Origin: Candidatus Poribacteria bacterium
Lineage (GTDB): Bacteria; Poribacteria; WGA-4E; JAJDTR01
Length of the DNA stretch: 64,000 nt
Reading direction: 5' to 3'
NCBI GenBank assembly: GCA_965204085.1
Contig: CBDBEE010000003.1
Location: forward strand, 387,240 to 451,239
Shown here: positions 14,519-49,867 of the stretch, one piece after another
Numbering within the stretch: position 1 is the first letter of the stretch
How the letters are laid out: every line of letters begins with the position of its first letter
Notes under the pieces: generated by a model
What the model was told of the DNA's origin: nothing
Databases searched by the model: none
The model's input: the letters and a program-made list of their open reading frames with translations, nothing else
Position numbers and translations under genes: made by a program

Positions 14519-14589
14519 GGTAATGTCCTCCGCTGCGTTATTGGCTTTGAGAAACTTAATCTACAACCACTGTAGGTCGGGCTTCTATA

Positions 14590-17148: not shown

Positions 17149-17282
17149 GTACATACACCTGCGACGAATGTAAGCAACTTTCGATAAAAAATCTCGCATT
17201 GTAACGAAAACCACGCCGCGCCAACCACTTAGCCACTCGTTCCAGATTGACAAATTCACCTAATCTTCCTCTGACTATTCGG

Positions 17283-17350
17283 TATTCTTGCATTCGCTCC
17301 GGAGGAGCGGAATGTCTGTAGAACGCTTCAATCTTCTGCTCCAGAGGAGC
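17283..17350. repeat. two short hairpins, CGCTCCGGAGGAGCG-GAATGT and TGCTCCAGAGGAGCA-GCATGT, of the same family as the 50640 and 57850 tandem repeats
   Basis: Sequence inspection. Confidence 0.55.
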
Positions 17351-17524
17351 AGCATGTTTGTAAAACTAGCAAAACTTCAATTCCTACCCAGTTGTTAGTG
17401 AAGCTGAAACACTATCTATTGAACCTTGCTTATGGTGTTCAGACAACAAAACTGAGGTCGTTTGACATTATGAATGTTTTATTCAATTCGTGAGCACAAT
17501 GTTGAGCTCGTAGTTCGGGCCGAA

Positions 17525-17762
17525 CAGAGTGAAACCCAACACCAAGCTAATCTATTGTAGGGTGCGCACTGCGCACCAGCCTCTTCCAAGCGCCATCGTC
17601 CATCTTATTCTCAAAGGTCCGAAGTAGCACTGACGCGTATTGTTCAAACTGCGCCTGGAAGTCGATAATTAACGATTAACGTAACTTCATCCGGAATGCG
17701 TCTCATTCTATCGCTGTAACGCTAATGCGAAATATCCCAAAAAAGCACCGTACCGTCGTCGC
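17525..17762. repeat. second copy of the WD40 3' block; its palindrome reads GTGCGCACTGCGCAC (17555..17577), with compensatory G>C / C>G changes in the two arms
   Basis: Direct comparison with 15081..15320. Confidence 0.8.
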
Positions 17763-19602: not shown

Positions 19603-19776
19603 GTCTATACACCTGCGATAGTACAAAGATATTCTGAAATGCCCAAAATTGAGACTGTTTAATATCGTCAAAGATTCTTCTAGCTGCCGACACAACAATT
19701 ACGAAGACGCAAATCGCTCAGACGCGATGAATTATTCGGGGCGAACTCGCTTCCACGCGAATCCGTCAATCCCCGA

Positions 19777-29195: not shown

Positions 29196-30430
29196 GCCCC
29201 TATCATCAAGAACCCAAGTTCATGAAAACTTCGCGCAGCTTATCGAAGGTCGGGCGCGCGTTTCTTAAGCCTACCCCAAATTGTGGCTGTCTTGGAAGTA
29301 GGGGACACCGCTAGTGCTACCGGGTTAAAGTCGGGCTGGTAATCGATCCCATCATGATCATCGCTAAGTTGCTTAAGATATTTTCCATCTGCGGTCATCA
29401 AGTGAATCTTTGCGCCGAAGAGAAATTCATCAGAGCTCGCATATGCGATCGCCTCTCCATCGGGAGACCATGCGGGCCCCCGATGATTCTCTTGATTGTG
29501 TGTAAGCTTCTTGAGATTTTTTCCATCCACCCCCACCACATAGATGTGAAAGAATCCCGCCTCCTCGCCCCAGTATGCAATCCGTCCTCCGTCGGGAGAA
29601 AACGATGGGTGCCATTTAGGCACTAAATCGTGCGTTACCCGTTCAAGCCCCTGTCCGTCAGCGTCCATCACGTAAATTTCGTTGCCCCCATCTTTCCAAG
29701 ATACGAATGCAATCTGTCCCCCATCCGGAGACCATGATGGCTGCCTCGTTCGGTCTTCATACCTTACACGATTTCCTCCATCTGCGTCCATTACCTCGAT
29801 ATGATTTATCCCATCTTGGACGGTGAACGCAATCTTACCCCCATCTGGAGACCAGTCTGGATCCGCCTTTCTTTCCGGCCCATCTGTCAGTTTAATCAGG
29901 TTCGTACCATCGGCGTCCATGACGTAGATTTGATATTCGCCGGTTCGACGGGAAACGAATGCAATCTTCGTCCCGTCGGGAGACCAATCCGGATCCTCGT
30001 CATCCACTGGATTGTTTGACAAGTTTTCCCGGTTTCCGCCATCGGAATCCATTACATAGATTTCAAAGTTGTCAAATCCCTGGTGTGAAAAAACAATCCG
30101 TGGCCCCTGCGCGGCGAGTCCTCCTATAAACCACAACTCCGCACTTAACAGCATCACGGTTAACCCAATAAACGACACAAGTGTGCGCCTGAATCGCATT
30201 TTTTCCTCCTTGGCCGTGCCTAATATGAACAGTAAGGTAACCGGTTTTGAATGCGTGCTCAGGTACCGTTTGTACGCGCTCCTAATCCTTGCGCAATGTT
30301 CTCGGCACTGGCGATATTTTCAATGGCCCGTCCCAGTCTTCTAGCCCCATTGACATCATCACGGCTTCCCGGTGCGTTTGAGATCTCCCCAAGATATCGG
30401 CAACTTTCCGTTTGGGTTGACTGCCAATGC
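29196..30430. repeat. segmental duplication, copy 1 (about 1.23 kb; PD40 type-A gene, its upstream region, and the 3' end of the next type-B gene)
   Basis: It is about 98% identical to 32676..33910. The identity breaks down on both sides, as seen by direct comparison of the two stretches. Confidence 0.85.
29240..30199 (-). CDS. secreted TolB-like PD40 beta-propeller protein (type A, 319 aa)
   Basis: ATG at 30199 with an AGGAGG Shine-Dalgarno sequence and a signal peptide. Repeated PD40 blades follow the D-W-SPDG-x-IAF pattern. The C-terminal tail is …AVSPTSKTATIWGRLKKRAPDLR. Confidence 0.8.
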   Translation of the reverse strand: MRFRRTLVSFIGLTVMLLSAELWFIGGLAAQGPRIVFSHQGFDNFEIYVMDSDGGNRENLSNNPVDDEDPDWSPDGTKIAFVSRRTGEYQIYVMDADGTNLIKLTDGPERKADPDWSPDGGKIAFTVQDGINHIEVMDADGGNRVRYEDRTRQPSWSPDGGQIAFVSWKDGGNEIYVMDADGQGLERVTHDLVPKWHPSFSPDGGRIAYWGEEAGFFHIYVVGVDGKNLKKLTHNQENHRGPAWSPDGEAIAYASSDEFLFGAKIHLMTADGKYLKQLSDDHDGIDYQPDFNPVALAVSPTSKTATIWGRLKKRAPDLR

Positions 30431-31348
30431 ACCTTGCGGCCAAGAGGGATCTTTGTTATCAATACCGGGAGGAGTCTTCGTGAGTTTGACGGCGTTCCTC
30501 CCGTTGGTGTCCATCAAATAAATATTAGAATCTCCGCCGCGGTGCGACACATAGGCGATTTTCTTCCCATCCAGAACATAGACTGGTGACGTGCTGCGAC
30601 CGTCTTCCGTAAGCTGCTCTAACTCTTTCCCGTCAGTGGTAATCGCGAAAATGTCATCACGCGTGCGATCAGGGAAGCGGCGCCGCGAGTGGAAAACAAT
30701 CTTCTTGCCATCTGGCGACCAAGTAGGAAAGAAACTGTCCGTGAGGTCGCTGTCGCCGGTGAGATTACGCCTTCCCGTTCCATCTGCATTCATCACGAAG
30801 ATGTGAGCGGGATCAAAGTCGTCGAAAGGGGCGCCGACAAACGCAATCTTACTTCCATCTGGTGACCAACTCGGTACAACATCGTCCATCTTGTGTTCTG
30901 TCAAATTTATCTCATTTTCTCCATTGGCGTCCATCACGTAGATTTCCGAGTTGCGGACGTGAAAACGGGAAGATGAAAAGGCAATCCTCGTGCCATCCGG
31001 CGACCAAGTAGCGCGGCTGTCAAAAAAATTGTCATGGGTGAGTCTTACCACGTTATTGCCATCACTGTCCATCACATACAAGTCCTGTGTAACGCCGCGC
31101 TCTGATGTGAACGCAATCCTTCTCCCATCCGGCGAGCAAGCGGGATATTCATCGGATGCAGGGTGGTCGGTGAGTTGGAGGAGATTGTCTCCATTTACGT
31201 CCATGGAGTAAATGTCCCAGTCGCCGTCACGATTCGATGCAAAGACGATTCTCGGTTCGAACGTCTGCGCGGTGCTGTTAGAAGTAACTATTAACGCCAA
31301 TAGCAGTAGAAACAGGCATTTTCTCAAAAATGGGCTGATTTTAATCAC
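30359..31348 (-). CDS. secreted TolB-like PD40 beta-propeller protein (type B, 329 aa)
   Basis: GTG start at 31348 with a GGAGAA Shine-Dalgarno sequence and a signal peptide (CLFLLLLALIVTSNSTAQ). PD40 blades are present. The C-terminal tail is …AVNPNGKLPISWGDLKRTGKP. Confidence 0.75.
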   Translation of the reverse strand: MIKISPFLRKCLFLLLLALIVTSNSTAQTFEPRIVFASNRDGDWDIYSMDVNGDNLLQLTDHPASDEYPACSPDGRRIAFTSERGVTQDLYVMDSDGNNVVRLTHDNFFDSRATWSPDGTRIAFSSSRFHVRNSEIYVMDANGENEINLTEHKMDDVVPSWSPDGSKIAFVGAPFDDFDPAHIFVMNADGTGRRNLTGDSDLTDSFFPTWSPDGKKIVFHSRRRFPDRTRDDIFAITTDGKELEQLTEDGRSTSPVYVLDGKKIAYVSHRGGDSNIYLMDTNGRNAVKLTKTPPGIDNKDPSWPQGALAVNPNGKLPISWGDLKRTGKP

Positions 31349-31443
31349 CGGTCATATTCTCCTTTTTCGGGTTCTACGCTTTTAGACTATTCTCTAAATC
31401 CCGGCAATGCTGTGTTTGGGTGTCGCCACCGAGTTCATTGACA

Positions 31444-32457
31444 TTACCGCGGGTTGCCGGTGCGTTTGATATCTCCCCAAGATGTCGGCAACTTTCCGTT
31501 TGGGCTGACTGCAAACGCACCAGCAGCAAACAACCAGGAAGGAAGTATGTTATCAACACTGGGAGGAGTTCTCGTGAGTTTGACCGCGTTCCTTCCGTTG
31601 GTGCCCATCAAATAAATATTGTAATCTCCGTCTCTTGTTGACGCAAAGGCGATTTTTGTCCCATCCGGCGAATAGGCTGGAAACCTGTTGCTACCCTCCT
31701 CCGTAAGCCTTTCTAAGTTTTCCCCTTCAGCGGTAATCGCGTAAATGTGATAATGCAGGTCTGGATCAAAGAGGTGCTGCGAGTGGAAAGCGATCATGCG
31801 TCCATCTGGCGACCAAGCAGGGGACCGATTTTTCGTTAGGTCAGTATCGCCGGTGAGATTGCGCCTTTCCTTTCCATCCGCATTCATCACGAAAATATGC
31901 TCTGGACTAAACCAGTCGCCGTCACGGGCGGATACAAACGCAATCTTGCTTCCATCTGGCGACCAACTCGGCGAATTATCTTGCCATTTGTGTTTTGTCA
32001 AATTTATCGGGTTATTTCCATTCACGTCCATCGCGTAGATTTCCTGGTTGCCAACGACCGCACGGAAAGATGAAAAGGCAATCCTCTTGCCATCCGGCGT
32101 CCAACTAGGGTCGATTTCAACAAAATTGTCATGGGTGAGTCTTACCACGTTATTGCCATCGCTGTCCATCACATAAAGGTCATGTGTAACGCCGCGTTCT
32201 GATGTGAACACAATCCTTCTCCCATCCGGCGAGCAAGCGGGAGAGTAATCGTATGCCGGGTGGTCGGTGAGTTGGAGGAGATTGTTTCCGTTTTGGTCCA
32301 TGGAGTAGATGTCCCAGTTGCCAATCCAGTTGCCATCGTGGTTTGATTGAAAGACGATTCTCGGTTCGAAGCTCTGTGCTGTACTGTCCGAAGTAACCAT
32401 TAACGCCAATAGCAGTAGAAACAGGCATTTTCTCAAAAATGGGCTGATTTTATTCAT
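31444..32457 (-). CDS. secreted TolB-like PD40 beta-propeller protein (type B, 337 aa)
   Basis: ATG at 32457 with a signal peptide and PD40 blades. The tail is …AVSPNGKLPTSWGDIKRTGNPR. Confidence 0.8.
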   Translation of the reverse strand: MNKISPFLRKCLFLLLLALMVTSDSTAQSFEPRIVFQSNHDGNWIGNWDIYSMDQNGNNLLQLTDHPAYDYSPACSPDGRRIVFTSERGVTHDLYVMDSDGNNVVRLTHDNFVEIDPSWTPDGKRIAFSSFRAVVGNQEIYAMDVNGNNPINLTKHKWQDNSPSWSPDGSKIAFVSARDGDWFSPEHIFVMNADGKERRNLTGDTDLTKNRSPAWSPDGRMIAFHSQHLFDPDLHYHIYAITAEGENLERLTEEGSNRFPAYSPDGTKIAFASTRDGDYNIYLMGTNGRNAVKLTRTPPSVDNILPSWLFAAGAFAVSPNGKLPTSWGDIKRTGNPR

Positions 32458-32675
32458 CGGTCATGTCCTCCTTATTCCGGTATTTCAATTCTATAGTCAA
32501 TGCAACTGAAAAATTCACATTCGGGGAATTTAGCAGTTCAGTTTGCAGGAGCGATCTCCGAATCGCGAAGGAGCAACTCAATACTCGCTCCGATAGAGGT
32601 TGCGTTATGAATCGTGCTACTACGAGCCGAACCCAGTAAATCCTAAATGTGAAATCCTTGATTGATGCGATAATA

Positions 32676-33910
32676 GTCCCTATCATCAAGATTCACAGTT
32701 CAAAAGACAATCTCACAAGCTATCGAAGGTCGGGCGCGCGTTTCTTAAGCCTACCCCAAATTGCGGCTGTCTTGGAAATGGGTGACACAGCTAGGCCTAC
32801 CGGGCTAAAGTCGGGCTGGTAATCGATTCCATCATGATCATCGCTAAGTTGCTTAAGATATTTTCCGTCTGCGGTCATCAAGTGAATCTTTGCGCCGAAG
32901 AGAACTGCATCAGAACTCGCATATGCGATCGCCCCTCCATCGGGAGACCATGCGGGCCCCCGATGATTCTTTTCATTGGGCGTAAGCCTCTTGAGGTTTT
33001 TTCCATCCACACCCACCACATAGATGTGAAAGAATCCCGCCTCCTCGCCCCAGTATGCAATCCGTCCTCCGTCGGGAGAAAACGATGGGTGCCATTTAGG
33101 CACTAAATCGTGCGTTACCCGTTCAAGCCCCTGTCCGTCAGCGTCCATCACGTAAATTTCGTTGCCCCCATCTTTCCAAGATACGAATGCAATCTGTCCC
33201 CCATCCGGAGACCATGATGGCTGCCTCGTTCGGTCTTCATACCTTACACGATTTCCTCCATCTGCGTCCATTACCTCGATATGATTTATCCCATCTTGGA
33301 CGGTGAACGCAATCTTACCCCCATCTGGAGACCAGTCTGGATCCGCCTTTCTTTCCGGCCCATCTGTCAGTTTAATCAGGTTCGTACCATCGGCGTCCAT
33401 GACGTAGATTTGATATTCGCCGGTTCGACGGGAAACGAATGCAATCTTCGTCCCGTCGGGAGACCAATCCGGATCCTCGTCATCCACTGGATTGTTTGAC
33501 AAGTTTTCCCGGTTTCCGCCATCGGAATCCATTACATAGATTTCAAAGTTGTCAAATCCCTGGTGTGAAAAAACAATCCGTGGCCCCTGCGCGGCGAGTC
33601 CTCCTATAAACCACAACTCCGCACTTAACAGCATCACGGTTAACCCAATAAACGACACAAGTGTGCGCCTGAATCGCATTTTTTCCTCCTTGGCCGTGCC
33701 TAATATGAACAGTAAGGTAACCGGTTTTGAATGCGTGCTCAGGTACCGTTTGTACGCGCTCCTAATCCTTGCGCAATGTTCTCGGCACTGGCGATATTTT
33801 CAATGGCCCGTCCCAGTCTTCTAGCCCCATTGACATCATCACGGCTTCCCGGTGCGTTTGATATCTCCCCAAGATGTCGGCAACTTTCCGTTTGGGTTGA
33901 CTGCAAATGC
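32676..33910. repeat. segmental duplication, copy 2
   Basis: See copy 1. Confidence 0.85.
32720..33679 (-). CDS. secreted TolB-like PD40 beta-propeller protein (type A), a near-identical duplicate of 29240..30199
   Basis: It is about 98% identical to the copy at 29240..30199 at the nucleotide level, including flanks. The tail is …AVSPISKTAAIWGRLKKRAPDLR. Confidence 0.8.
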   Translation of the reverse strand: MRFRRTLVSFIGLTVMLLSAELWFIGGLAAQGPRIVFSHQGFDNFEIYVMDSDGGNRENLSNNPVDDEDPDWSPDGTKIAFVSRRTGEYQIYVMDADGTNLIKLTDGPERKADPDWSPDGGKIAFTVQDGINHIEVMDADGGNRVRYEDRTRQPSWSPDGGQIAFVSWKDGGNEIYVMDADGQGLERVTHDLVPKWHPSFSPDGGRIAYWGEEAGFFHIYVVGVDGKNLKRLTPNEKNHRGPAWSPDGGAIAYASSDAVLFGAKIHLMTADGKYLKQLSDDHDGIDYQPDFSPVGLAVSPISKTAAIWGRLKKRAPDLR

Positions 33911-34846
33911 ACCAAGAGTCAGCCAAGAAGGATATATGTTATGTACACCGCGCGGAGTGTTCGTGAGTTTGACAGCGTTCATCCCGTCGGTATCCATCAG
34001 ATAAATATTTGAATCACCGTTACGGTGTGACACATAGGCGATTTTTGCCCCATCCGGCGAATAGGCTGGCATCCTGTTGCTGCCCTCCTCCGTAAGCTTC
34101 TCTAACTCTTCTCCTTCAGCGGTAATCGCGTAAATTTGATAACGCGGGCCTGGAGCGAAGATGTGCTGCGACTGGAACGCAATCTTGCTTCCATCTGGCG
34201 ACCAAGTAGGGGACAGATTATTCGTTAGGTCGGTATCGCCAGTGAGATTGCGCCTTTCCTTTCCATCCGCATTCATCACGAAAATATGCTGGGGAGTATC
34301 CAAGCGGCCATCACGGGTGGATGCAAACGCAATCTTGCTTCCGTCCGGCGACCAACTCGGCGTTAAATCGTGCCACTTATGTTTTGTCAAATTTATCTCA
34401 TTTGCTCCATTGGCGTCCATCACGTAGATTTCCGAGTTGCGGACGTCAAAACGCACAGATTCAAAGGCAATCCTCGTGCCATCCGGCGACCAACTAGGTC
34501 TACCTTCAATAAAATTGTCACGGGTGAGTCTTACCACGTTGTTGCCATCGCTGTCCATCACATACAGGTCATGTGTGACGCCGCGCTCTGATGTGAACGC
34601 AATCCTTCTACCGTCCGGCGAGCAAGCGAGTAACCAATCAGATCCCGGATGGTCGGTGAGATGGGCCACATTGTCTCCGTTTACGTCCATGGAGTAGATG
34701 TCCCAGTTGCCAAGCCAGTTGCCATCGTGGTTTGATGCAAAGACGATTCTCGGTTCGAAGATCTGCGCTGTGCTGTCTGAAGCAACCATTAACGCTAGTA
34801 ACAATAGAAACAGGCATCTTCTAAAAAATGGGCTGATTTTATTCAT
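33839..34846 (-). CDS. secreted TolB-like PD40 beta-propeller protein (type B, 335 aa)
   Basis: ATG at 34846 with a signal peptide and PD40 blades. The tail is …AVNPNGKLPTSWGDIKRTGKP. The last ~30 codons fall within the duplicated block. Confidence 0.8.
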   Translation of the reverse strand: MNKISPFFRRCLFLLLLALMVASDSTAQIFEPRIVFASNHDGNWLGNWDIYSMDVNGDNVAHLTDHPGSDWLLACSPDGRRIAFTSERGVTHDLYVMDSDGNNVVRLTRDNFIEGRPSWSPDGTRIAFESVRFDVRNSEIYVMDANGANEINLTKHKWHDLTPSWSPDGSKIAFASTRDGRLDTPQHIFVMNADGKERRNLTGDTDLTNNLSPTWSPDGSKIAFQSQHIFAPGPRYQIYAITAEGEELEKLTEEGSNRMPAYSPDGAKIAYVSHRNGDSNIYLMDTDGMNAVKLTNTPRGVHNIYPSWLTLGAFAVNPNGKLPTSWGDIKRTGKP

Positions 34847-35091
34847 CTGTCATTCTCTCCTTATTCGGGTTCTTTTCTTCTAGAGAATTGTCTAACCTAA
34901 GTTGCCGACATTGTAGCACGATCAAGCGACTGATTAGGGAGCGCGATAGAAATCCCATAGCGAAGGCGATAGTAAATCCCACAGGTAGCAGCAGCTCAAA
35001 TATACAAAATTGCTATGTCACCTCTTTTTCAAACAGGCTCTTATGCACTTGTCTATGGCTTGTCGTCGAACTTCAACAAAGCGGGCGTAGA

Positions 35092-36075
35092 TTATCGGAG
35101 GTTGGACGCGCGTTTCTTCACCCTGCCCCAAATTGTAGTTGTTTTGGAGATGGGGGACACAGCTAATCCGAACGAGCGAATGTCGGGCTGAGAATCATTC
35201 GCACCATCGACATTGCTAAGTTGCTTAAGATATTGTCCATCGGCCGTCATCAAGTGAATCGATGAAGGACCATCATTGTCCCAGACATAATATGCGATCC
35301 TCCGTCCGGAGACAGACCATGCAGGGCCTCCATGATTCTGTTGATTCTGTGTAAGTCTCACCCGATTTTTCCCATCTGCCCCTACCACAAATATTTGAGG
35401 GTATAATCTGTCGATGGCCACGTATGCAATCCGTTTTCCGTCAGGAGAAAACGCCGGACTGTGTCCACCCCATAATTCCCGTAATTCATGCGTTACCCTT
35501 CTAAGCCCCTGTCCGTCAGCGCCTATCACGTAGATATCAGACCACCACTCCCCAGCTCTAAAGGATGAGAATGAAATCTCACGTCCATCAGGAGACCATG
35601 ACGGATCCCTCGCGTGGTTTTTAAACCTCACCCGATTATTTCCATCGGCATCCATCACGGCGATGTGAGATTCCCTTATTGCAGCCGGTTGGACCGTGAA
35701 GGCAATTTTACCCGCATCGGGAGACCAGTCTGGTGCCCACTTGCTCCGCGGTCCATCTGTCAATCTAATCGGGTTCTTTCCATCGGCGTCCATGACGTAG
35801 ATCTGATTTCCGCCGTTTCTGTCGGAAACGAATGCAATCTTCGTCCTGTCAGGAGACCAATCCGGATCGCTGTCATACGCTGGATGGTTTGTCAAGTTTT
35901 CTCGGTTTCCTCCATCAGCGTCCATTACATAGATATCAGTGTTGTCAGGTTTCGCGTAGAATGTAAAAACAATTCGATTTGTGCTGAAGGCGAACCCGCT
36001 TCTCAACCACAACTCCCCACTCAACAGCAACACCGTTAGCCCGATAAACGACACAAGCGTGCGTCCGAATCGCAT
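35092..36075 (-). CDS. secreted TolB-like PD40 beta-propeller protein (type A, about 327 aa)
   Basis: An ATG at 36075 (MRFGRTLVSFIGLTVLLLSG…) has an AGGAGG Shine-Dalgarno sequence 6 nt upstream. The track start at 36093 lacks one. The tail is …AVSPISKTTTIWGRVKKRASNLR. Confidence 0.8.
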   Translation of the reverse strand: MRFGRTLVSFIGLTVLLLSGELWLRSGFAFSTNRIVFTFYAKPDNTDIYVMDADGGNRENLTNHPAYDSDPDWSPDRTKIAFVSDRNGGNQIYVMDADGKNPIRLTDGPRSKWAPDWSPDAGKIAFTVQPAAIRESHIAVMDADGNNRVRFKNHARDPSWSPDGREISFSSFRAGEWWSDIYVIGADGQGLRRVTHELRELWGGHSPAFSPDGKRIAYVAIDRLYPQIFVVGADGKNRVRLTQNQQNHGGPAWSVSGRRIAYYVWDNDGPSSIHLMTADGQYLKQLSNVDGANDSQPDIRSFGLAVSPISKTTTIWGRVKKRASNLR

Positions 36076-36320
36076 TTTCTCCTCCTTAGTCATGGGTGTA
36101 ATGCGCAGCCCGTAGGTTGGGTTGAGCGGAGACCCTGAAAATATCCAAGAAGTCAGATTGCTTTAGAGCCTGTTTGAGAAGTACATTTGTAGGGGACGCA
36201 GATCTGCGTCCCCATACGGATCAAGTTAAGGGAGTTCGTCTAGTATTGGTGAGTTCTTCGCCGCAAAACCCTTAACTTAGTCCCCATTGGGCGAGGAGTA
36301 AATCTCAATCTCACCCCATA

Positions 36321-36791: not shown

Positions 36792-39700
36792 TCAATCCGC
36801 CGGCTGCGGCGCCAGTTCAGGGCTTGCGGTTTCCTCCGACTCGTCGTCCTCTTGACGTCCGCGCTCATGGAATTCGCCTCGAACATCCGGGCTAAGCGTC
36901 CGCCAGATCAGCAACTGCTTCCGAATCAAGTTCAAGAACCGACGATTCACACGCTTCCACGACGCTATTTCGCCGCTCTCGCGGGTAATATCAAGTTTAA
37001 TCTGGTACAGTTCCTCCTCCTCGCCGCCAACCGGCGACGTCACGAACCGAATGGCTTGGCTCACGCCCAAATCGTACGGCGCCAACCAAACCATCATACT
37101 GACGGCGTACGACTCCTGTTCCCTATCTCCTGATTCCTCCATAAACCTGGCGAAGGCAACTTGGTTCGTATAAAAATCACTCGCCGACTCGTCCGCGTGC
37201 GCATCAAAGTAATCGCGCATAAATATGTTCAGACCGAGAGCTTCCTCGGACAGCACCGTGAACGGTAGGTTGAAGTGCCATTCATCGCCTGTAGGTTCCG
37301 GCAACTTCCACTTTCGTTCCAAATCGGGAACCGCCATCCGGCTCGCTTTAATCGCCGGGTACAGTGTGCTGCCCACCACTACTATCATCACGATAATCGT
37401 CGCTACGACCGTGGACATGGACGAGTAATTTAGGGTCAGACCGGAAAGCCAACCGAAATTCACCAGCAGCGTCGCCACGACTTGACCCAACAGGTAACCG
37501 AGCACCGCGCCGACAATCGCATAAACACACGCCTCCGCGAGGAACAGAAACGCGATATGCACCGGCGCCAATCCGACAGAGCTGTAGATGCTAATCTCTC
37601 GAATCCTCTCGTAGACCGCGCCAAGCATGGTGTTTAACACAATCAGCGATGCGATGAGAATCGGAATGAACAGGTTCCCCATGCCGGAGAACGAGGTCAT
37701 CCCGATTGAGCTGTACAGATACGTGTTCTTGTCCCGAGCCACGAAAAAATCGAGCGCAATTCGGCTCATCAGCGGCGCCATGATGAGATCCAGTTTGTCG
37801 ACCGCACCCGGTACCGGCGGATCTTCGGGTTGAGGCTCCATATTGACAGCCACCGAGCGCAGCGTGCCGCCTTGGTTGATAATCACCTGATACGGCAGTA
37901 TGGCAACGCTGTCCGGCGTCAGGTGGATATATTTCTGCAATTCGCTGGTGCTGCTCTGGTTCCCTTGCGCTCCCCGCGAGCTTTGCTGTTTCATCAATTG
38001 GTGATCGATGGGCGTCAGCTCCTCGCCATCGTTGTCGGTCAAATCCTTGAAACCGATTCCGAGCACCCCGGTCACGGTAAAGTCCGCGCCGTAAACCGAA
38101 ACAGTGGCTTTGCCCATATCGGCTTCGACAATTCCCAGCAGATCTGCAACTCCTTTCGGCAGCACACATGCATAGGGCCATCGCGTGGGCCATTCCTCCT
38201 CATCCGCGGGATCGAACCACTTACCGTAATACAGATAGCGGTTTATGCCGGTGATTCGCGGCTCGGCGGCGCTCATCCCGACCAGCATGTTGGCGGAGAA
38301 GGTGTAGGGTTGACCGGTCAAGGCGTCCTCGGGGGGCACGGGATCCTTGACGTTGGAGGTGCGTCTCAATTCGATAAACGACTGATCTCCCGTGCCTGAT
38401 GATTGGTACCACGCTCGGGGACCTACCGCGTTGTGAACCGTCAACATCGAAGAGGGCTGGTAAACCTTCAATTCATCCCCGTCTTTCCTCACCGTGTATG
38501 TGCTCCTGTTGCCGGTGATTTCCCATCTTTCTTCGTCCGTGACCGGCTGAATAGATGTCTGAGGCGCAAGAAGGAATCCGCGTCTGTCAAATTCATGGTT
38601 TAAACTTGCGGAAATTTCGCCCTTCGCAAACTCATCCTGAAGTTCTGAATCCATGCTGAACAGGAATGTCGGTTCGGCGCTGACGCTGGCGAGCGTCCCC
38701 GCCTCGCTTAGCTGAGCAATGGTATCCTCAATCTCCTCCGAGGGCGTGCCTCGCCTTTTCAACATCATCCGAAAATCAGGTTCGGGAAGCTGTGTCTTCC
38801 TCAGATCATTCATAATCGAGCTGATGACCGGCGCTTCAAGCGGACGCCAATACTGATCTCGAATCAACATCCCGGTGTAGCGCGGTGTCACGGCGGGCAG
38901 GTTGGTCTTGTTGGGGTGCATGAAGGTGCGCACGGAGGTGAACGAGATAACGGTGAAGGTCAATATCACCAGCGTGGCGCATGTCAGAATGGTGCGGCCC
39001 TTCCGTTTTCGCATATTCGACACGCCGAGACTGAAAGCCGCGGCGGAAGCCGCCAGGCGGCCCACGTCCGCTTTATACACCTTCGAACTTTCCTGTCTGA
39101 TTTTCTCGAGTTGCTCCTCGAATTTTCGCAAGATGATGGCGATTACGAACACCGTTAGCACCAGCACCACGAAGGCGATAAGAATGATGACGGGCGTGGT
39201 CGTAATTTGGAACGCGGGATGCACCTGCGCCAAAAAGAAGAACACCAGGATGAAAATCCCAGCCGCGCCGCCAATCCGTTTGTGCACGTCGGGAGAGGCA
39301 AAGATCAGACGTTCCATAAAGTAGGAGAACGGCAGGAGTAAGGCGAGGTAGAACATGACCCCGTTGACGACATCGTTACCCGTTTTCTTGACATCGGGAT
39401 AGGCGCGCGATTCGTATCCCCACGCCGCTCGCGCCAGTTTCATTGCCGTGGAGTATTCTTTCTTGGCGAGCGCCGTTTCCGCTTGATCCAGGTGCTCGTG
39501 CGCATAGAAATGGAGTTGATCGAGCCGATCGCTGCTGATGCCGAACCGTTTGTATAAGCTCGTGCGGTTTTCGTCGAGCCACCACATATCTCGGACGACA
39601 ACGTAGGGCGTGACGCGGATGGAACCGTTCTCGCGGACGACAAACCCCGATCCGGTGTATAGTGCCGGATTCTTCGCGCCGCTCTTGCCCGCTTTGATAA

Positions 39701-42700
39701 GCAGCAACCGCTTGCCGATCTGCCCGTATGCCATGCCAATCTTTATACGTGTATCCGGTTCGGAATAGACAAGCGCGATCGGCTCGGTGGCGGACACGCC
39801 CTGCTGCTGCCACGGTTTGGACATCCCGTATTTTTCCGGCGGGCTATCGCTTAAACCGTCAAACACTTGCAACTCGCGCAGCGTGCGCAGGTACCGCTGA
39901 TCGACGAGGTCGTAAATGGTAGTGGACACACACGGGAAAACGATGACGCGGCAGCCTCGTCGCCGGTTTTGGATCCGAAGTTTATTGGATGTGAGTTTGG
40001 CGCCGAAGTTGCCCAAATCCGGGGCATACACGATGTCGCCGGAGTCGGAGTCAAGGAGGTAGGCATCAACCTCTTGCAACCCGCCAATGCGGTGAGTTGC
40101 TCGTCCCTCCATCGCCAGACCCGGCACATCAAACTGAGCTTTGTTGTTGCCCATGGCGATGAGGTCGCCGCGAACACCCATCATGGTCTTGTGCTTGCGT
40201 CGTATAGCGACGATAGGATAGGGCACCGGCGTGTTAGGTAGCGCGCTCTCCCGGGCGTCGTATTCGACGACATCGCCGAACAAATTGCAGTAGAAGTTAC
40301 TCACCTTGGCGCCGGTGGGCATTTTCGGATCGAGCATGGCTTGGATGAGGATGCCGGTCAGCGATTTTACCTGCCTGTGAAGATTGCCGTCATACGTGAG
40401 ATCCATTCTGTCAATCGTGTCCAACGGTGTGTCAGTCAGCAGCCGCCCGTCTTCGATCGTGGCGAACGTAACGCCGGTCTTACCTATCAACGTGGCAACC
40501 TCGCTGTCAAAAGCAATCTTTCCCGGGATGTAGGTTCGCCACGTTTTGGCGCCGGTGGCACCGATAGCGTTGACGAAGTTCGTTTCGCCTCCCAGCCCGA
40601 CGATGTCGATTAACGTTTGGATATCTTCAATCTCGTCCGGGCTTAGTTGAGAAGGATCCTCATGACGCAGGGCAAGCATCATCGGCAGCCGATTGAGGAG
40701 TCGAATCGTGTTCTTGCGGGTTCGCTGCGCCTCGCGTAGGTCGTCTTGGATAAACCGTTCCACTTCGTTGCGGATGTATTCCATGTCTTTCAGCATCTCT
40801 TCCGAGGGCTCGCCGCGCGTCTGCATCTGCTCAAACTGCATCTTCATCAGGCGGGAGACATCGGTCAGCGCAACCAACGATTCGTAGTGGTCGGAAATCA
40901 GGGTCTCCAGAGACTTTCCTTCAATTTCTTTCTTCGTCTCTATCTCGAAAGCGGCTTCCCATTGGCTGTTCATGACCGCCTGACGAATTTGGTCATCGGT
41001 AAAACTCCAGAGCTTGCCGATGCGCACGCCGAAGTCGACGTCGTTGGCGTACTGCATGAGCTTGTTGCCAATGGGGGCAAACTCTCGCCGCAGCACAAAC
41101 TCGGGTTGCTGGTCGTAGAACCAGCCCTTGTTGAACACGGCGAATTTGTCGCTCTGCGTGGAGAGGTCAACCGAGATAAATAGGGAGGTGTAGTAGCGGT
41201 TGAAAAGGTCTTGAAGGGAGATGGCTTGCTCAACGGCGGCGATATTACGGTCATATTCCGATTTGCTGAATCGGGCGAGAATTGCAACGCGGGATTGGAT
41301 GTTGCGAATACGCGAGTTTCGGAGAGTAAGCATGTTGTCGCGGAGAAGGATTTTTATGTCGTCCGGAAAGTCGCGGTCAAAGTTGTCCAGTCCGTTCCTC
41401 AAGTTCTGAAGCTCGACAATATCCTCGCGCGCTTTCTGTTTGACAAACCGGAGCAGCCTGCGTTCTTCAAGGTGGGCAGCTATCTGTTCGCGCGCTTCGA
41501 TTGCGGCTTCCGCTTCGTCATTCTCAAGGTAGTGACGCAACACGAGTATCTCTTCTTCAAAGTACGGACGATTCAGCGAAGCGTGCCAATCATCCTCCAG
41601 CAGGGATTCCAGCCGCTTGCGCTCAAGCCGCGCGTTCCGCATGGCAATCTCAAAGATTCCCTGCTTGTCCTTCGTCAACTCCTCAATAAGGACGGCATGG
41701 GATTCCTTTATCACCCCGCCGCCGGCTGTTTCGTGAACATTCGCCACCTTCTGGCGCAGTTGCGTCTGGATCCCCTTCAACCGACTCATTATGGCTCTAC
41801 TCAGAAAAGGTGCGAATATCCCGTCGACATCATCAGGCATGTAGTCGCGTTGGGTGCGCAACCGGCTTATGCTCGTCTTGATGGGTGACTCAAAATCCGC
41901 ATCCGAAGAAATTCTTTGAAGCGCGTTCTCAAGCTGAAGTTTTTCTTGAGCAATATAGTCGTCCAAACTCCTGTTCGCCTGCCTGGCGCGATCCACAACC
42001 TTGCGCGCGTCCTTCATCGCCTTCAGACCGTGGAAATCCAAGTGTCGATCTAGCACGCGCTCTTGGGCGTATTGGAGCGCAAATTTACGAGAATCGGAAA
42101 ACTCCCAATCCGCCAAATAGTCGGACAGTAGTTTCAAATCCGAGGCTACAGATGTTCCAATGAGATTAGACGGAATTGGGAGATGATAGGCGTCATCTTC
42201 ACCTTTTTCCGGAATGAGGTATGAATCACCCGGCTGCCGTCCGTAGCTTCCACCGACGCGCCCGGCATTCAAATCGGCTTCCAACTGTTCCAACACCCAC
42301 GCGTCCAACCGTGCCATGGGTAGCGCAACGTTTTCAATTAGTTCCAATTGCGCTTCTCGGCACGCCGTCAACGCCATGATCTGGAGGTCATGCATGCGGT
42401 CAACGACCATGCGCAAGAATTGGGTTGTCTGCAGCGCATCTTTCTTGAATTTTGCGAGATTGGTCTCAAGCGTGGATTTTTCCTCCAGCGTATAGCCCTG
42501 CTTCTCGCGTTTTTTCACGACGCGGCGGCGTCTTTTCTGCTTCTCTTTGAAATCTCGTTGTTTGTTGCGCAGCGAGTTGATTCGGTTGTACGTTTTCCCG
42601 ACATCGGATACAGTGGATTTCAGTGACAGAATGGCATCGTCAAGCTGGTGGATTTCGTAGAAGAATTCGGGAGGCAGATCGACGAGCACACTACGGTCAA

Positions 42701-44468
42701 TCGAGAGCAGCAGTTTACGACTCAATTCCTTGAACGGACGGAGATCCAGTCCCAGCCCTTTTGCCATCCCTCCCATGGTTGGAATCCCGGGCGCTTCGCC
42801 CGAGTTGATGTTGAAGTCCGCCCTCGCGATTATATCTTGTCCAATTCCGAACATAAAGAATCGCATACCGGCAAGCCCCTGGAAGTGCCCGTCCGTCGCG
42901 ACAAAAAGCATGGAGCGTCCGGGACGGTATTCCTCTTTGCTGAGGATTCGCGCCACCTCCAAAAGCGCCGCGATTCCGCTTGTAGGATCGGCGCCGGGGG
43001 CAAGTGACGGGACGACCGACATGGAGTCGTAGTAGGCGGTAACGACAACCATCTCGTCTTTCAGAATCGGGTCGCTGCCTTCAAGGAATCCGCGGATGTT
43101 TTGGCCAATTCGGCGTTCCCACGTCATGGTAGAATTCAACCGAACCATTAACGGCTCTGATTTGGAATTCCGATCTGCGTTTCCTGCCTCGGATTCGCCT
43201 AGAAGATTAAGTAACAGATCCGCATCCGTCCTTGAAATCCAGAATCGAGGGATGTTCGCAGGCACCGTCAAGAATTTGTTTTCGGCTTCACCGCGAATAG
43301 TGGTTTCGGGTTCAATAAACACCACAGCTTTCGCGCCAAGCATGGCAGCATTTATCCATTGCGTGCTGGAATTGAAATCTACCAGCAGAACGCTTCCGCG
43401 CGGAATGAAGAGACTGGACTCCGATGCGGCAATAAACTCACCGTCCTCATCAATTAGACCGTCGTTGTTGTTGTCAACGCCATCGTAGGCATTGCCGGGC
43501 GTTTCGTCAACATACCCGTCAGCATCGTTATCAATACCGTCACTGTCCCAATAGACGATGTCGGCAAGCAACGGGATTTCGCCGTATTCGTCAATTTCGC
43601 CGTCTTCGTTGTTGTCAATGCCGTCTTCGGTTTTCTGTAGGTGGCTATTGAGCACATCGTCGGTGATACTCCCCACGGTAACACGATGCCTGTGAGCGAT
43701 GTCTTCAAGCGTATCGCCCCTCTGAACGGCGTACCAGAATCCGCCGATATCTTTGCCGTTGAAGTCCTCCAGATTGGCGTCACCCCCGTAAAAGAGTGGG
43801 GCGCGAAGACCACCGGTGGGAACGAATACCGTGCTGCTCGTCGTTAACGCCACCTCGCCGGGTTCGTCGATTTCGCCATCCCTGTCGTTATCCTGTCCAT
43901 CAGCGGCTTGATTTTGCAGATATTGATTATGGGAATCCTCAAGAATGGATCGAGGCTCTACCTGATATGACTTGGCAATGGATTCGACGGTTTCGCCATC
44001 TTGCACGAGGTGCTTGATCCCGGTGGGCAGCAGTGAGGTACGAATGAGGTTGGGCCACACGGGCCATATCTTTATGGTTCTGAGCACCTCATCGTTTGAG
44101 GAAAGCACCTCCAGTCTTCCGTCGCCGTGGTCAACGGGAACGGCGATCCGAAATTCGCGGCTCTCGACGTTCTGTAAGCCGGTCTCGACGAACCGATCGA
44201 AGACGTACTTACTTGCGGCAGTCGCTTCGGGATAGCCTGTGACCCGACTCTCCAGACTGGAGAGCCGCGCGATATCCTTTCGCATTCTACCGACATCAAC
44301 CTCATCCCGAATCTTGACCGCGATTTCAGAGAGACCGACGGTTGTATCCCTTTCCGCAGTCAGAGGCGTGGATGTCATGATCAGTGCGATGAGACAAACC
44401 CATAGAATATGGAGACTCCTATTCTTGATTGCAATTCGACATTTATCTTTGTTTTTGAGATTGTTCAT
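36792..44468 (-). CDS. giant (2558 aa) membrane protein: N-terminal signal anchor, LysM-like repeats with Asp-rich Ca-binding-like repeats, an M28-peptidase-like domain, about 1000 aa of coiled coil, and FtsX/MacB-type permease modules at the C-terminus
   Basis: One uninterrupted ORF starting at ATG 44468. The tandem segments VQDGETVESIAKSY…/VQRGDTLEDIAHRH… are each followed by D-x-D-x-DG-x-ID-E repeats. VVVTAYYDSMSVVPSLAPGADPTSGIAALLEVARIL resembles the M28 signature HxDS…APGAxDxxSG. The C-terminal block (RKRKGRTILTCATLVILTFTVISF, a ~500-aa periplasmic insert, then GAVYERIREISIYSSVGLAPVHIAFLFLAEACVYAIVGAVLGYLLG) is a clear FtsX-like permease domain. No Walker A motif occurs anywhere in the protein. 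Confidence 0.8.
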   Translation of the reverse strand: MNNLKNKDKCRIAIKNRSLHILWVCLIALIMTSTPLTAERDTTVGLSEIAVKIRDEVDVGRMRKDIARLSSLESRVTGYPEATAASKYVFDRFVETGLQNVESREFRIAVPVDHGDGRLEVLSSNDEVLRTIKIWPVWPNLIRTSLLPTGIKHLVQDGETVESIAKSYQVEPRSILEDSHNQYLQNQAADGQDNDRDGEIDEPGEVALTTSSTVFVPTGGLRAPLFYGGDANLEDFNGKDIGGFWYAVQRGDTLEDIAHRHRVTVGSITDDVLNSHLQKTEDGIDNNEDGEIDEYGEIPLLADIVYWDSDGIDNDADGYVDETPGNAYDGVDNNNDGLIDEDGEFIAASESSLFIPRGSVLLVDFNSSTQWINAAMLGAKAVVFIEPETTIRGEAENKFLTVPANIPRFWISRTDADLLLNLLGESEAGNADRNSKSEPLMVRLNSTMTWERRIGQNIRGFLEGSDPILKDEMVVVTAYYDSMSVVPSLAPGADPTSGIAALLEVARILSKEEYRPGRSMLFVATDGHFQGLAGMRFFMFGIGQDIIARADFNINSGEAPGIPTMGGMAKGLGLDLRPFKELSRKLLLSIDRSVLVDLPPEFFYEIHQLDDAILSLKSTVSDVGKTYNRINSLRNKQRDFKEKQKRRRRVVKKREKQGYTLEEKSTLETNLAKFKKDALQTTQFLRMVVDRMHDLQIMALTACREAQLELIENVALPMARLDAWVLEQLEADLNAGRVGGSYGRQPGDSYLIPEKGEDDAYHLPIPSNLIGTSVASDLKLLSDYLADWEFSDSRKFALQYAQERVLDRHLDFHGLKAMKDARKVVDRARQANRSLDDYIAQEKLQLENALQRISSDADFESPIKTSISRLRTQRDYMPDDVDGIFAPFLSRAIMSRLKGIQTQLRQKVANVHETAGGGVIKESHAVLIEELTKDKQGIFEIAMRNARLERKRLESLLEDDWHASLNRPYFEEEILVLRHYLENDEAEAAIEAREQIAAHLEERRLLRFVKQKAREDIVELQNLRNGLDNFDRDFPDDIKILLRDNMLTLRNSRIRNIQSRVAILARFSKSEYDRNIAAVEQAISLQDLFNRYYTSLFISVDLSTQSDKFAVFNKGWFYDQQPEFVLRREFAPIGNKLMQYANDVDFGVRIGKLWSFTDDQIRQAVMNSQWEAAFEIETKKEIEGKSLETLISDHYESLVALTDVSRLMKMQFEQMQTRGEPSEEMLKDMEYIRNEVERFIQDDLREAQRTRKNTIRLLNRLPMMLALRHEDPSQLSPDEIEDIQTLIDIVGLGGETNFVNAIGATGAKTWRTYIPGKIAFDSEVATLIGKTGVTFATIEDGRLLTDTPLDTIDRMDLTYDGNLHRQVKSLTGILIQAMLDPKMPTGAKVSNFYCNLFGDVVEYDARESALPNTPVPYPIVAIRRKHKTMMGVRGDLIAMGNNKAQFDVPGLAMEGRATHRIGGLQEVDAYLLDSDSGDIVYAPDLGNFGAKLTSNKLRIQNRRRGCRVIVFPCVSTTIYDLVDQRYLRTLRELQVFDGLSDSPPEKYGMSKPWQQQGVSATEPIALVYSEPDTRIKIGMAYGQIGKRLLLIKAGKSGAKNPALYTGSGFVVRENGSIRVTPYVVVRDMWWLDENRTSLYKRFGISSDRLDQLHFYAHEHLDQAETALAKKEYSTAMKLARAAWGYESRAYPDVKKTGNDVVNGVMFYLALLLPFSYFMERLIFASPDVHKRIGGAAGIFILVFFFLAQVHPAFQITTTPVIILIAFVVLVLTVFVIAIILRKFEEQLEKIRQESSKVYKADVGRLAASAAAFSLGVSNMRKRKGRTILTCATLVILTFTVISFTSVRTFMHPNKTNLPAVTPRYTGMLIRDQYWRPLEAPVISSIMNDLRKTQLPEPDFRMMLKRRGTPSEEIEDTIAQLSEAGTLASVSAEPTFLFSMDSELQDEFAKGEISASLNHEFDRRGFLLAPQTSIQPVTDEERWEITGNRSTYTVRKDGDELKVYQPSSMLTVHNAVGPRAWYQSSGTGDQSFIELRRTSNVKDPVPPEDALTGQPYTFSANMLVGMSAAEPRITGINRYLYYGKWFDPADEEEWPTRWPYACVLPKGVADLLGIVEADMGKATVSVYGADFTVTGVLGIGFKDLTDNDGEELTPIDHQLMKQQSSRGAQGNQSSTSELQKYIHLTPDSVAILPYQVIINQGGTLRSVAVNMEPQPEDPPVPGAVDKLDLIMAPLMSRIALDFFVARDKNTYLYSSIGMTSFSGMGNLFIPILIASLIVLNTMLGAVYERIREISIYSSVGLAPVHIAFLFLAEACVYAIVGAVLGYLLGQVVATLLVNFGWLSGLTLNYSSMSTVVATIIVMIVVVGSTLYPAIKASRMAVPDLERKWKLPEPTGDEWHFNLPFTVLSEEALGLNIFMRDYFDAHADESASDFYTNQVAFARFMEESGDREQESYAVSMMVWLAPYDLGVSQAIRFVTSPVGGEEEELYQIKLDITRESGEIASWKRVNRRFLNLIRKQLLIWRTLSPDVRGEFHERGRQEDDESEETASPELAPQPAD

Positions 44469-44780: not shown

Positions 44781-45194
44781 TCAGAGTTGGTCTTCAACCC
44801 AGTCATCGTCATGGTCTGGATTATAAATCAACCCCTTCCTCATATCAAGACATAGGTCAAGTAGTTCCAGTATCATATGTCCAACAAGCACAGGGGCATT
44901 GTCAGGCAAGTCTGTCACCCGGATGGTCTCTTTCCGCTCCAAGAGTGTGAATTCAACCTCCGAATAGACGGTACGGTCAACCATCCCGTTTGCGGTCATC
45001 GCTCTAGCTGTTCCGACGGGAGTCAATCCGAGTTGAGCAATTAGCGATTTGGGCAGGGACAATCTCGTCGCACCGGTGTCTACGAGTGCGTCTTCGACGA
45101 TTAGGCGTCGCACCGCCTCAGGATCAATAACGCCTTCTTCCGCCAAAACTTGATCTCTTCGATTAGCGATTACAATTCTCGTCGTATGTTTCAT
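44781..45194 (-). CDS. retropepsin-like (clan AA) aspartic peptidase, 137 aa
   Basis: ATG at 45194 with an AGGAGA Shine-Dalgarno sequence. The catalytic motif VDTGATRLSLP (D-T/S-G-A) sits in a size and context typical of bacterial and archaeal retropepsin-like proteins (TIGR02281 / AF_0612-type). Confidence 0.7.
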   Translation of the reverse strand: MKHTTRIVIANRRDQVLAEEGVIDPEAVRRLIVEDALVDTGATRLSLPKSLIAQLGLTPVGTARAMTANGMVDRTVYSEVEFTLLERKETIRVTDLPDNAPVLVGHMILELLDLCLDMRKGLIYNPDHDDDWVEDQL

Positions 45195-49674: not shown

Positions 49675-49867
49675 GGGAAATATCTCCCAATTACAATCTT
49701 CCGGAAACACCCGGCCCAGCAACCGCTTCGCCTCTACTCTTGTAGGAGCGATCCCCAGGTCGCGACATCAAGGCGAATCGCATCAAAATTCCGTCAATTG
49801 CGTGCGAGTTTTCGTCCCGAATTCCGTTATTGCACGCATTCCAAAAAGCAAATTCTAGGTCACACTA

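Follow-up and report, generated by a model that had tools for sequence, protein, structure and literature searches.

The window analysed here, a 64-kb stretch of the genome of a sponge-associated Candidatus Poribacteria bacterium (contig CBDBEE010000003.1), carries on its minus strand a complete gene for an envelope protein of 2558 residues, hereafter called the giant, in which a peptidase-like ectodomain, long helices and an FtsX-type permease are joined in a single polypeptide. Judged by sequence, the giant is genuine and conserved and belongs, as a greatly enlarged member, to a widespread family of type VII permease subunits that has so far gone unstudied, with a predicted role as the permease subunit of a MacB/LolC/FtsX-like ATP-binding cassette (ABC) mechanotransducer. 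The domain inventory of the original prediction, which had been drawn from the letters of this stretch and listed LysM-like units and calcium-type loops, an M28-like domain, long helices and FtsX, holds in Pfam searches and AlphaFold2 models, and the architecture that it called unusual is conserved. The features are collected in Table 1.

Table 1. Parts of the giant and genes downstream of it, in window coordinates (TM, transmembrane; aa, residues of the giant; ORF, open reading frame)
Feature	Position	Strand	Basis
Complete pseudo-M28/FtsX-type permease gene	36792..44468	(-)	ATG start, 2558 aa; ORF list and translation
aa 1-38, positively charged N-terminus and hydrophobic segment (aa 19-37)	44355..44468	(-)	Hydropathy scan; homologue consensus ..AAE
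aa 52-150, first M28/PA-like ectodomain segment	44019..44315	(-)	Common to ~1500-aa members (blastp, 150 distant representatives)
aa 151-357, two LysM-like units (aa ~154-220, 246-305) and Ca-type loops	43398..44018	(-)	Pfam LysM; motif scan
aa 358-540, PA-like region and N-terminal half of M28-like domain	42849..43397	(-)	Pfam; alignments to 1amp and 6w6l
aa 564-1289, all-alpha insertion splitting the M28-like domain	40602..42779	(-)	AlphaFold2 pLDDT 80-93
aa 1290-1699, C-terminal M28-like half (LLTDTPLDTID at aa 1343), then family-conserved ectodomain of unknown fold	39372..40601	(-)	
aa 1700-1779, three extra TM helices before the FtsX module	39132..39371	(-)	Hydropathy; PDLC01991 coverage in typical members
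aa 1780-1844, basic cytoplasmic linker (elbow-helix position), then TM1 (aa 1826-1844)	38937..39131	(-)	Hydropathy
aa 1845-2266, periplasmic domain between TM1 and TM2 (MacB_PCD-like)	37671..38936	(-)	Pfam; relatives
aa 2267-2380, FtsX TM2-TM4 and major coupling helix YERIREISIYSSVGL (aa 2286-2300)	37329..37670	(-)	Pfam FtsX
aa 2381-2558, cytoplasmic alpha/beta domain (aa ~2381-2540, ~160 aa) and acidic tail	36795..37328	(-)	Conserved across phyla
Six tandem PD40/TolB-like beta-propeller genes, 319-337 aa, between giant and DUF6785	29240..36093	(-)	Pfam PD40
DUF6785+DUF6784 polytopic membrane protein, 647 aa	26652..28595	(-)	Pfam E 1.7e-139 and 1.6e-28

The C-terminal hydrophobic region, whose relation to FtsX had been a point of doubt, is FtsX-like, as indicated by a Pfam FtsX match over residues 2267-2378 (E 2.7e-12, 47.2 bits at a cut-off of 25.5) and by alignments with LolC and MacB, and the count of modules comes to one, of the MacB/LolC type. 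A hydropathy scan places TM2 to TM4 of this module at residues 2267-2369, and LolC, MacB, YtrF and LolF are the PDB sequence matches covering this part. At the level of sequence the coupling helix between TM2 and TM3, YERIREISIYSSVGL, aligns with VMEKQGEVAILQTQGL of LolC and is invariant in 24 homologues, and the segment containing the preceding linker and TM1 (residues 1780-1844) is nearly invariant in the homologue alignment. The MacB_PCD match of the periplasmic domain is sub-threshold in the giant itself (E 0.005, 17.5 bits at a cut-off of 27) and passes this cut-off in the relatives P0142 (29.6 bits) and P0157 (28.3 bits). The defining features of the MacB fold and of type VII systems, as well as the topology of MacB, have been described (PMC5985334). 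NCBIfam models for individual subfamilies showed weak similarity, confined to the C-terminal part and far below their cut-offs, with 22.4, 11.4 and 10.7 bits for FtsX_actino, FtsX_Gpos and FtsX_Gneg (cut-offs 250, 225 and 255) and 16-26 bits for the LolC, MacB and LolCE models (cut-offs 362-966). A duplicated permease of the ADOP type (TIGR03434) was considered and rejected, given a score of 23.6 bits at a cut-off of 622 and a single FtsX stretch instead of two modules. For the cytoplasmic domain that follows the module the AlphaFold2 model reaches predicted local distance difference test (pLDDT) values of 65-84, and Foldseek finds weak START/Bet v1-like matches for the C-terminal part (E about 5e-3), which, coming from a mediocre model, are tentative.

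At the other end of the protein residues 1-38 are probably a signal peptide or signal anchor, with a putative cleavage site between ..PLTA and E, which would place the next ~1660 residues outside the cytoplasm. Within this ectodomain Pfam Peptidase_M28 matches residues 457-539 (E 3.9e-9, 36.9 bits at a cut-off of 21.3) in a match confined to the first 77 of the 193 profile positions, and Nicalin (6w6l) and the Pfam family Nicastrin are among the matches to the M28-like domain. In the relative P0136 the M28 profile extends to position 180 of 193, over residues that map to 359-539 and 1290-1358 of the giant, indicating that the M28-like domain of the giant is split by the helical insertion; for the second half a PDB sequence search returned only non-significant matches to carboxypeptidase B. 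The alteration of the metal-ligand motif, already noticed in the original prediction, is borne out by alignment with the aminopeptidase 1amp, in which the zinc ligands His97, Asp117 and Glu152 and the general base Glu151 were compared: His97 is replaced by Tyr479, Glu151 by His528 and Glu152 by Phe529, Asp117 corresponds to Asp494, a position held by Glu or Asp in 101 of 120 relatives, and Asp99 of 1amp is retained as Asp481. Among 120 distant relatives position 479 is Tyr or Phe, 481 is Asp in all 120, 528 is His in 116, and 529 is Phe, Tyr, His or Cys. As the ligand positions are replaced throughout these relatives, the canonical di-zinc site appears to be lost family-wide, leaving a conserved Asp/His pair. 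Along the chain the M28-like domain precedes the membrane core and neither sits on the FtsX periplasmic domain nor is bound to it; it is the ancestral ectodomain of the family and no recruited peptidoglycan hydrolase.

Why is the giant so much larger than its relatives? Typical family members, of ~1500 residues, contain the segments that map to residues 52-150, 357-540, 1290-1890 and 2015-2539 of the giant, so that the intervening stretches 151-357, 540-1290 and 1890-2015 are Poribacteria-specific insertions. The LysM/calcium block, missing from typical members in the blastp mapping, scores 29.7 bits in total with Pfam LysM (cut-off 20.9), in two stretches that each cover only profile positions 1-24 of 43, and in each LysM-like unit an acidic calcium-type loop interrupts the unit before its plausible last strand. 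A motif scan found four D.[DN].[DN]G..DE motifs starting at residues 193, 285, 313 and 332; the block has four calcium-type loops in all, since beyond the one inside each LysM-like unit it holds two further DGxDNxxDGxxDE loops. The second insertion, at whose place typical members have a linker with a median of 86 residues, is predicted by AlphaFold2 to consist of long helices of up to 75 residues (residues ~564-1289, about 725 residues, pLDDT 80-93), which probably form a helical stalk or bundle. A coiled coil of ~1000 residues had been proposed here; the long helices stand, their extent is reduced to ~725 residues, and a strict heptad coiled coil is not demonstrated, as a crude heptad scan did not support a continuous canonical coiled coil. 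A Foldseek search of the PDB with the helical region gave no significant match. The third insertion adds ~125 residues of alpha/beta structure to the periplasmic domain (residues ~1890-2015, pLDDT ~80). The two AlphaFold2 runs both used a shallow alignment of 24 sequences, and models outside the helical region are poor.

The giant is not a product of assembly. More than 120 clusters of full-length homologues, with 2420-2568 residues and 61-98% identity, came out of a search through 5.8 billion proteins; the named ones are Candidatus Poribacteria, many lie on contigs of 4-7 Mb, and the same gene is carried by complete Poribacteria chromosomes (independent contigs including chromosomes of 5-6.9 Mb). 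Since full-length homologues occur on many independent contigs and complete chromosomes, the fusion is conserved among orthologues and the in-frame chimera of two genes, which the original prediction had considered, is excluded. The closest relatives of the locus, here called the window clade, comprise the window itself, L005 (giant 92% identical), L008 (Poribacteria chromosome OZ240209.1), L043 and L089, and in the five independent assemblies of this clade the reading frame is intact. Between the window and L005 and L008 the ratio of nonsynonymous to synonymous substitution rates (dN/dS) is 0.06 for the giant overall; within the clade it is 0.014-0.05 in the conserved ectodomain, TM region, FtsX helices and C-terminal domain, with 0.014-0.019 for the most constrained part, the ectodomain segment at residues 1290-1699, about 0.04 for the coupling helix, and 0.02-0.05 between clade members for the TM, FtsX and C-terminal parts. 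The gene is functional.

An exhaustive HMMER search with residues 1359-2558 found 1317 clusters (at 50% identity) at E <= 1e-30. When genomes were scanned, at least 585 species genomes proved to carry relatives; they belong to about ten phyla, mostly uncultivated, including Poribacteria, Armatimonadota, Latescibacterota, Zipacnadia, WS1, Nitrospirota, Omnitrophota, Planctomycetota, Gemmatimonadaceae and Ratteibacteria. The common core consists, in this order, of a signal sequence, an M28/PA-like domain devoid of the canonical di-zinc site, the conserved ectodomain, three extra TM helices, the four-TM FtsX module with its MacB-like periplasmic domain and coupling helix, and the cytoplasmic C-terminal domain. 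A literature search found no paper on DUF6785 and none that pairs 'FtsX-like permease' with M28, and for Poribacteria and FtsX only an unrelated Verrucomicrobia genome paper; none of the literature searched mentions the family, whose function is uncharacterised. The family makes up a further widespread class of type VII system, of which the giant is a striking lineage-specific elaboration.

In other Poribacteria the orthologues of the giant, 62-73% identical, head an operon on one strand in which the giant is followed by a two-TM protein of 55-75 residues, a polytopic membrane protein of ~662 residues (p663), a protein of ~309 residues (p309), a PqqD-domain protein and an ABC ATPase. In 45 other Poribacteria loci p663 lies directly downstream in 44, p309 is present in 45, PqqD in 44 and the ATPase in 40. 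Neither p663 nor p309 has a Pfam match, and homology of p309 to the C-terminal cytoplasmic domain of the giant was rejected (hhalign probability 0.6%). This operon tolerates insertions, as a restriction-modification/HATPase cassette lies between PqqD and the ATPase in some operons (L092, L096, L097) and a small gene of the bAvd/23S_rRNA_IVP type between p663 and p309 in L098, L100 and L101; p663 itself is tandemly duplicated in L011, L012, L025, L052, L090 and L091. Of 29 loci in other phyla, 26 have p663 after the permease, 11 have a LolD-like ATPase and 8 have a DUF6785 protein, which adjoins the permease in 7. Every LolD-like ATPase in these other-phyla loci adjoins a minimal FtsX permease of 214-276 residues (e.g. 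L058:8479-9123, L054:4652-5389), which has four TM helices and a loop of only ~40-60 residues and is missing from Poribacteria; this suggests that in other phyla the minimal FtsX and the large permease form a LolC/LolE-like heterodimer.

In the window clade none of p663, p309, PqqD and the ATPase is within reach of the giant. What remains is the DUF6785 gene, found downstream of the giant in all five loci; it directly follows the giant in L005, L008, L043 and L089, and in the window the PD40 array stands between the two. The array consists of two sub-types in direct repeats of 74-100% identity with a period of 3480 nt, a recent duplication; being missing at the same position in the other four loci, it is a window-specific insertion and no conserved part of the system. 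The adjacency of giant and DUF6785 is kept across the clade down to ~78% protein identity. Pairs of the two recur, without an ATPase, in Armatimonadota (L073) and Latescibacteria (L082), and in Latescibacterota the permease and DUF6785 are naturally fused, with their order unchanged, as seen in several sources (2083-2120 residues, e.g. P0235). Moreover, p663 and DUF6785 appear to be distant relatives, with an hhalign alignment of 201 colinear columns (E 7e-5, 62% probability) and a colinear BLASTP match (E 0.005). Recurrence, fusion and kinship together argue that the adjacency is functional.

The poribacterial DUF6785 orthologues P0526, P0533 and P0543 (58-59% identity) match Pfam OPT colinearly with 26.8-28.8 bits (cut-off 25.8), and one p663 member matches OPT at E 1.5e-7, the other 27 of 28 p663 proteins being below significance; these matches point to a conserved partner that is an OPT-superfamily-like membrane protein. 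PDB profile searches with p663 and DUF6785 found nothing. The family is almost always encoded beside an OPT-like protein of ~650 residues, of the p663 or the DUF6785 type, a neighbour that the original prediction had missed, and rearrangement has left only the DUF6785-type partner beside the giant in the clade of the window. This arrangement is derived, since a DUF6785 orthologue stands alone in a genome that carries the full operon elsewhere. At L088:6217-11929 this stand-alone gene follows a TonB-dependent receptor gene at a distance of ~1 kb, and two small genes on the opposite strand lie between them, a position that fits a possible uptake role.

Where is the ATPase of the giant? The original prediction had seen none within ~8 kb on either side, and this extends to the whole window, about 36 kb downstream and 19 kb upstream of the giant. 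In a six-frame motif scan of the 64 kb no plausible ORF contained a Walker-A motif (G....GK[ST]), LSGGQ-type motifs were missing from all frames, and there was no tblastn match to the cognate operon ATPase of the family; together with Pfam scans of the ORFs this rules out an ATPase hidden in the window. The ATPase of the Poribacteria operons scores with NCBIfam as LolD (6e-69), MacB, DevA and FtsE, and since these operons hold no other FtsX permease the giant is its sole candidate partner. Permeases of the FtsX family whose ATPases are encoded apart from them have been known before, the ADOP 'orphan permease' of NCBIfam being one example. As orthologues with 62-73% identity keep the operon ATPase and the coupling helix is invariant, with dN/dS of 0.02-0.05 in the parts around it, the loss near the giant reads as a clade-specific rearrangement; the missing ATPase gene is, on these comparisons, a local matter and no family trait. 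That the coupling helix is invariant, and that dN/dS is very low in the membrane and cytoplasmic parts within the window clade, also argues that a nucleotide-binding domain is still engaged there.

The surroundings of the giant vary. Directly upstream lies a gene for a retropepsin-like (clan AA) aspartic protease of 137 residues (44781-45194, minus strand), which is not conserved in other loci and contains a sigma-70-like promoter match (11/12, 44848-44820, minus strand). Scans of 26.4-45.4 kb for promoter-like and terminator-like signals gave 19 and 27 matches against 15.7 +/- 4.4 and 20.3 +/- 4.3 in shuffles, both within the shuffle range, so that these signals define no transcription unit. 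Further upstream (45544-49722, minus strand) a protein of 1392 residues combines a cytochrome c-like N-terminus, leucine-rich repeats, cohesin, dockerin and a C-terminal sorting domain of the type IX secretion system (T9SS); at its position in L005 there is only an ORF of 195 residues with a T9SS tail, which shows this flank to be highly plastic. An XRE/M78 gene pair is found upstream of the giant in some other loci. On the far side a Lhr-type helicase of 1513 residues (DEAD, DEAD_assoc, WH_Lhr; 21856-26397, plus strand) is convergent with the DUF6785 gene and unrelated to the giant, and at 13277-21177 (minus strand) there are two consecutive gene pairs, in each of which a protein of 413 or 466 residues with CarboxypepD_reg and C-type lectin domains is followed by a WD40 protein of ~659 residues; they look like a duplicated two-gene unit.

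How might such a protein work? The best explanation overall, which we hold to be reasonably probable, is a type VII mechanotransducer permease with a pseudo-peptidase head and an OPT-like partner, whose ATPase is encoded elsewhere. Briefly, a LolD-like ATPase dimer from elsewhere in the genome would bind the coupling helices, and its ATP cycle would move the stalk of TM1 and TM2 and the periplasmic domain and thereby reposition the large ectodomain. By analogy with nicastrin, nicalin and the transferrin receptor, the pseudo-peptidase/PA head would be a receptor that binds a peptide, the N-terminus of a protein or some other ligand of the envelope. The LysM units and the helical stalk would position the head or ligand near the wall, and the ligand would be handed to the OPT-like transporter or used to gate it. 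ATP-driven capture of a peptide or other ligand that is handed to the OPT-like partner is our best guess for the function. That M28-like, OPT-like and PqqD-like proteins, three peptide-associated families, converge here is suggestive, and no evidence of function.

Several observations weigh against this explanation. Pfam finds no ABC_tran match among ORFs of at least 150 residues in the window, there is no ATPase within 10 kb in L005, L008, L043 and L089, a search with the ATPase of L006 matched only genomes with the full operon and none tied to a window-clade genome, and 18 of the 29 loci from other phyla are missing a nearby ATPase as well. The window's own DUF6785 protein has no Pfam OPT match at E <= 0.01, the globular and membrane models are poor (mean pLDDT 49 and 60) and leave the folds of the ectodomain, periplasmic and C-terminal domains tentative, and capture and hand-over of peptides is purely inferred from the domain families. 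Furthermore, the invariant Asp481 and the near-invariant His528 may confer a non-canonical catalytic activity on the M28-like site. Rather unlikely, in our view, is a bolder variant, a new kind of type VII ABC machine in which the motion of a nicastrin-like pseudo-peptidase ectodomain, driven by ATP or, in ATPase-unlinked DUF6785 variants such as that of the window, by the partner, is mechanically coupled to an OPT-like secondary transporter; it would be a hybrid device for capture and import, or for gating. FtsX in the window clade may then be uncoupled from an ATPase altogether and work with the partner alone, which would depend on the proton motive force.

The original prediction went further and saw a self-contained, ATPase-independent mechanotransducing or envelope-remodelling machine with its effector, peptidase and coiled coil, fused to the permease. 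The ATPase-free 64 kb of the window, the ATPase-free surroundings in the other four loci of the clade and the ATPase-less DUF6785-giant pairs of Armatimonadota and Latescibacteria would all suit such a machine; however, the operons of the 62-73% identical orthologues end in an ATPase of the LolD/MacB/FtsE class, the coupling helix is invariant and strongly constrained inside the ATPase-less clade itself, and the coiled-coil and LysM parts are lineage-specific insertions outside the family core, all of which makes the proposal improbable. Quite unlikely, too, is a regulator of peptidoglycan hydrolysis after the manner of FtsEX with EnvC or PcsB, in which LysM would bind the wall and the M28-like head cleave peptides or control their cleavage. 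LysM-like units, long helices adjoining a peptidase-like domain, a type VII permease module and the conserved Asp481 and His528 as a possible non-canonical site are what one would look for, but LysM and helices are missing from the ~1500-residue core in other phyla, the NCBIfam FtsX models score 10-22 bits at cut-offs of 225-255, the window has no ftsE or division genes, the di-zinc ligands are lost family-wide, and the conserved neighbours are OPT-like, PqqD-like and p309 and no wall enzymes. The analogy with EnvC and PcsB drawn in the original prediction is accordingly weak, the more so as the M28-like domain is an ancestral ectodomain N-terminal to the membrane core.

Were the giant a membrane effector of the CARF_m8 class with a part in defence, this would account for the best profile match of the giant, PADLOC PDLC01991 'CARF_m8--CARF_LolE_TM' (E 1e-47), for the match to PDLC01990 (E 9e-26) and for the XRE/M78 pairs in some loci. 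Such a role is nevertheless very improbable, since the matches stop at about position 690 of 810 of the profile, where the proteins end, and the presumed CARF part is missing, the C-terminal domain alone has no PADLOC match, and the genes are chromosomal, single-copy and syntenic across the phylum; in the loci seen, neither CRISPR nor cyclase genes are among their neighbours. Finally, the loss of the operon partners from the neighbourhood and the high plasticity of both flanks could be taken to mean that the giant of the window clade is a decaying remnant, or a mere surface or adhesion protein. This too we regard as highly unlikely in view of the frame intact in five independent assemblies, a dN/dS that is low overall and lowest in the membrane and cytoplasmic parts, and the adjacency to DUF6785 maintained across the clade to ~78% identity.

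To our knowledge, MacB, LolCDE, FtsEX and YbbAP exemplify ATP-powered mechanotransmission across the inner membrane, and only a handful of functional classes have been described. The family adds another widespread class, which numbers at least 1317 clusters, extends over about ten phyla and at least 585 species genomes, and has a fixed gene set of pseudo-M28 permease and OPT-like protein, often with a LolD-like ATPase, a PqqD-like protein and the 309-residue protein. For DUF6785/DUF6784 this is the first functional context, that of an OPT-like protein partnering an ABC mechanotransducer, and it is backed by the gene fusion. In addition, the Poribacteria version shows how a domain can take up a helical stalk of 725 residues and putative wall-binding modules, presumably so as to span a thick envelope, and for sponge symbionts this may bear on the capture of nutrients or signals at the cell surface.

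How does the giant compare with known systems? Nicastrin, Nicalin, the transferrin receptor and GCPII likewise have a membrane-anchored M28/PA-like ectodomain with degenerate zinc ligands, and in eukaryotic proteins M28-PA ectodomains of the Nicastrin, Nicalin and transferrin receptor type are binding or receptor modules; the giant differs in being bacterial, in its fusion to an ABC-type permease and in an M28 domain split by a helical insertion of 725 residues. With FtsEX and its effectors EnvC, PcsB, RipC and CwlO it shares the combination of a type VII permease with long extracytoplasmic helices, a peptidase-like domain and, in the giant, putative wall-binding modules, whereas its peptidase-like domain is in cis, N-terminal to the membrane core, and does not dock on the FtsX periplasmic domain, is M28/PA-like and devoid of a metal site instead of LytM, CHAP or NlpC/P60, and its helices and LysM units are confined to Poribacteria, with no ftsE neighbour and no division context. 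The closest profiles to the membrane core are PADLOC PDLC01991 and PDLC01990 (E 1e-47 for the giant, 1e-50 to 1e-57 for typical members). PDLC01991 is covered over positions 33-690 of 810 in typical members, that is, the extra TM helices, the FtsX module and the domain after it, and over 416-682 in the giant; none of the matches reaches its last ~120 positions, and neither a CARF-like part nor a setting that points to defence was detected. The PADLOC proteins are best read as a probable sister group that shares the membrane core and has an extra, presumably CARF, part. The architecture of PDLC01990 ('CARF_m8--CARF_Beta-galactosidase_LolE_TM') also carries a large hydrolase-like ectodomain, which suggests that the ectodomain of the family may be modular.

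The partner resembles the OPT family in that DUF6785 and p663 proteins are polytopic, of about 640-660 residues, and some match Pfam OPT colinearly; the match spans about a third of the OPT profile, and transport by the partner is a role suggested by this likeness. YbbAP-TesA of E. coli is described as a type VII ABC system in which motion driven by ATP is coupled to a partner with a hydrolase fold outside the cytoplasm (PMC12646458). In YbbP the FtsX arrangement is duplicated, and TesA, an active lipase, is a protein of its own, while the giant has a single module, an ectodomain in cis that is probably inactive, and an OPT-like partner. From MacB and LolC-LolE, finally, the giant is set apart by an N-terminal ectodomain of ~1660 residues, three extra TM helices, a cytoplasmic domain after the module and loci that offer an OPT-like protein as conserved partner in place of a membrane-fusion protein, TolC or a partner of the LolA/B type; what it has in common with them is the four-TM FtsX module with a periplasmic domain (MacB_PCD-like) between TM1 and TM2 and a coupling helix between TM2 and TM3, LolC and MacB as its best PDB matches, and, for most of its orthologues in other Poribacteria, an operon ATPase of the LolD/MacB class.

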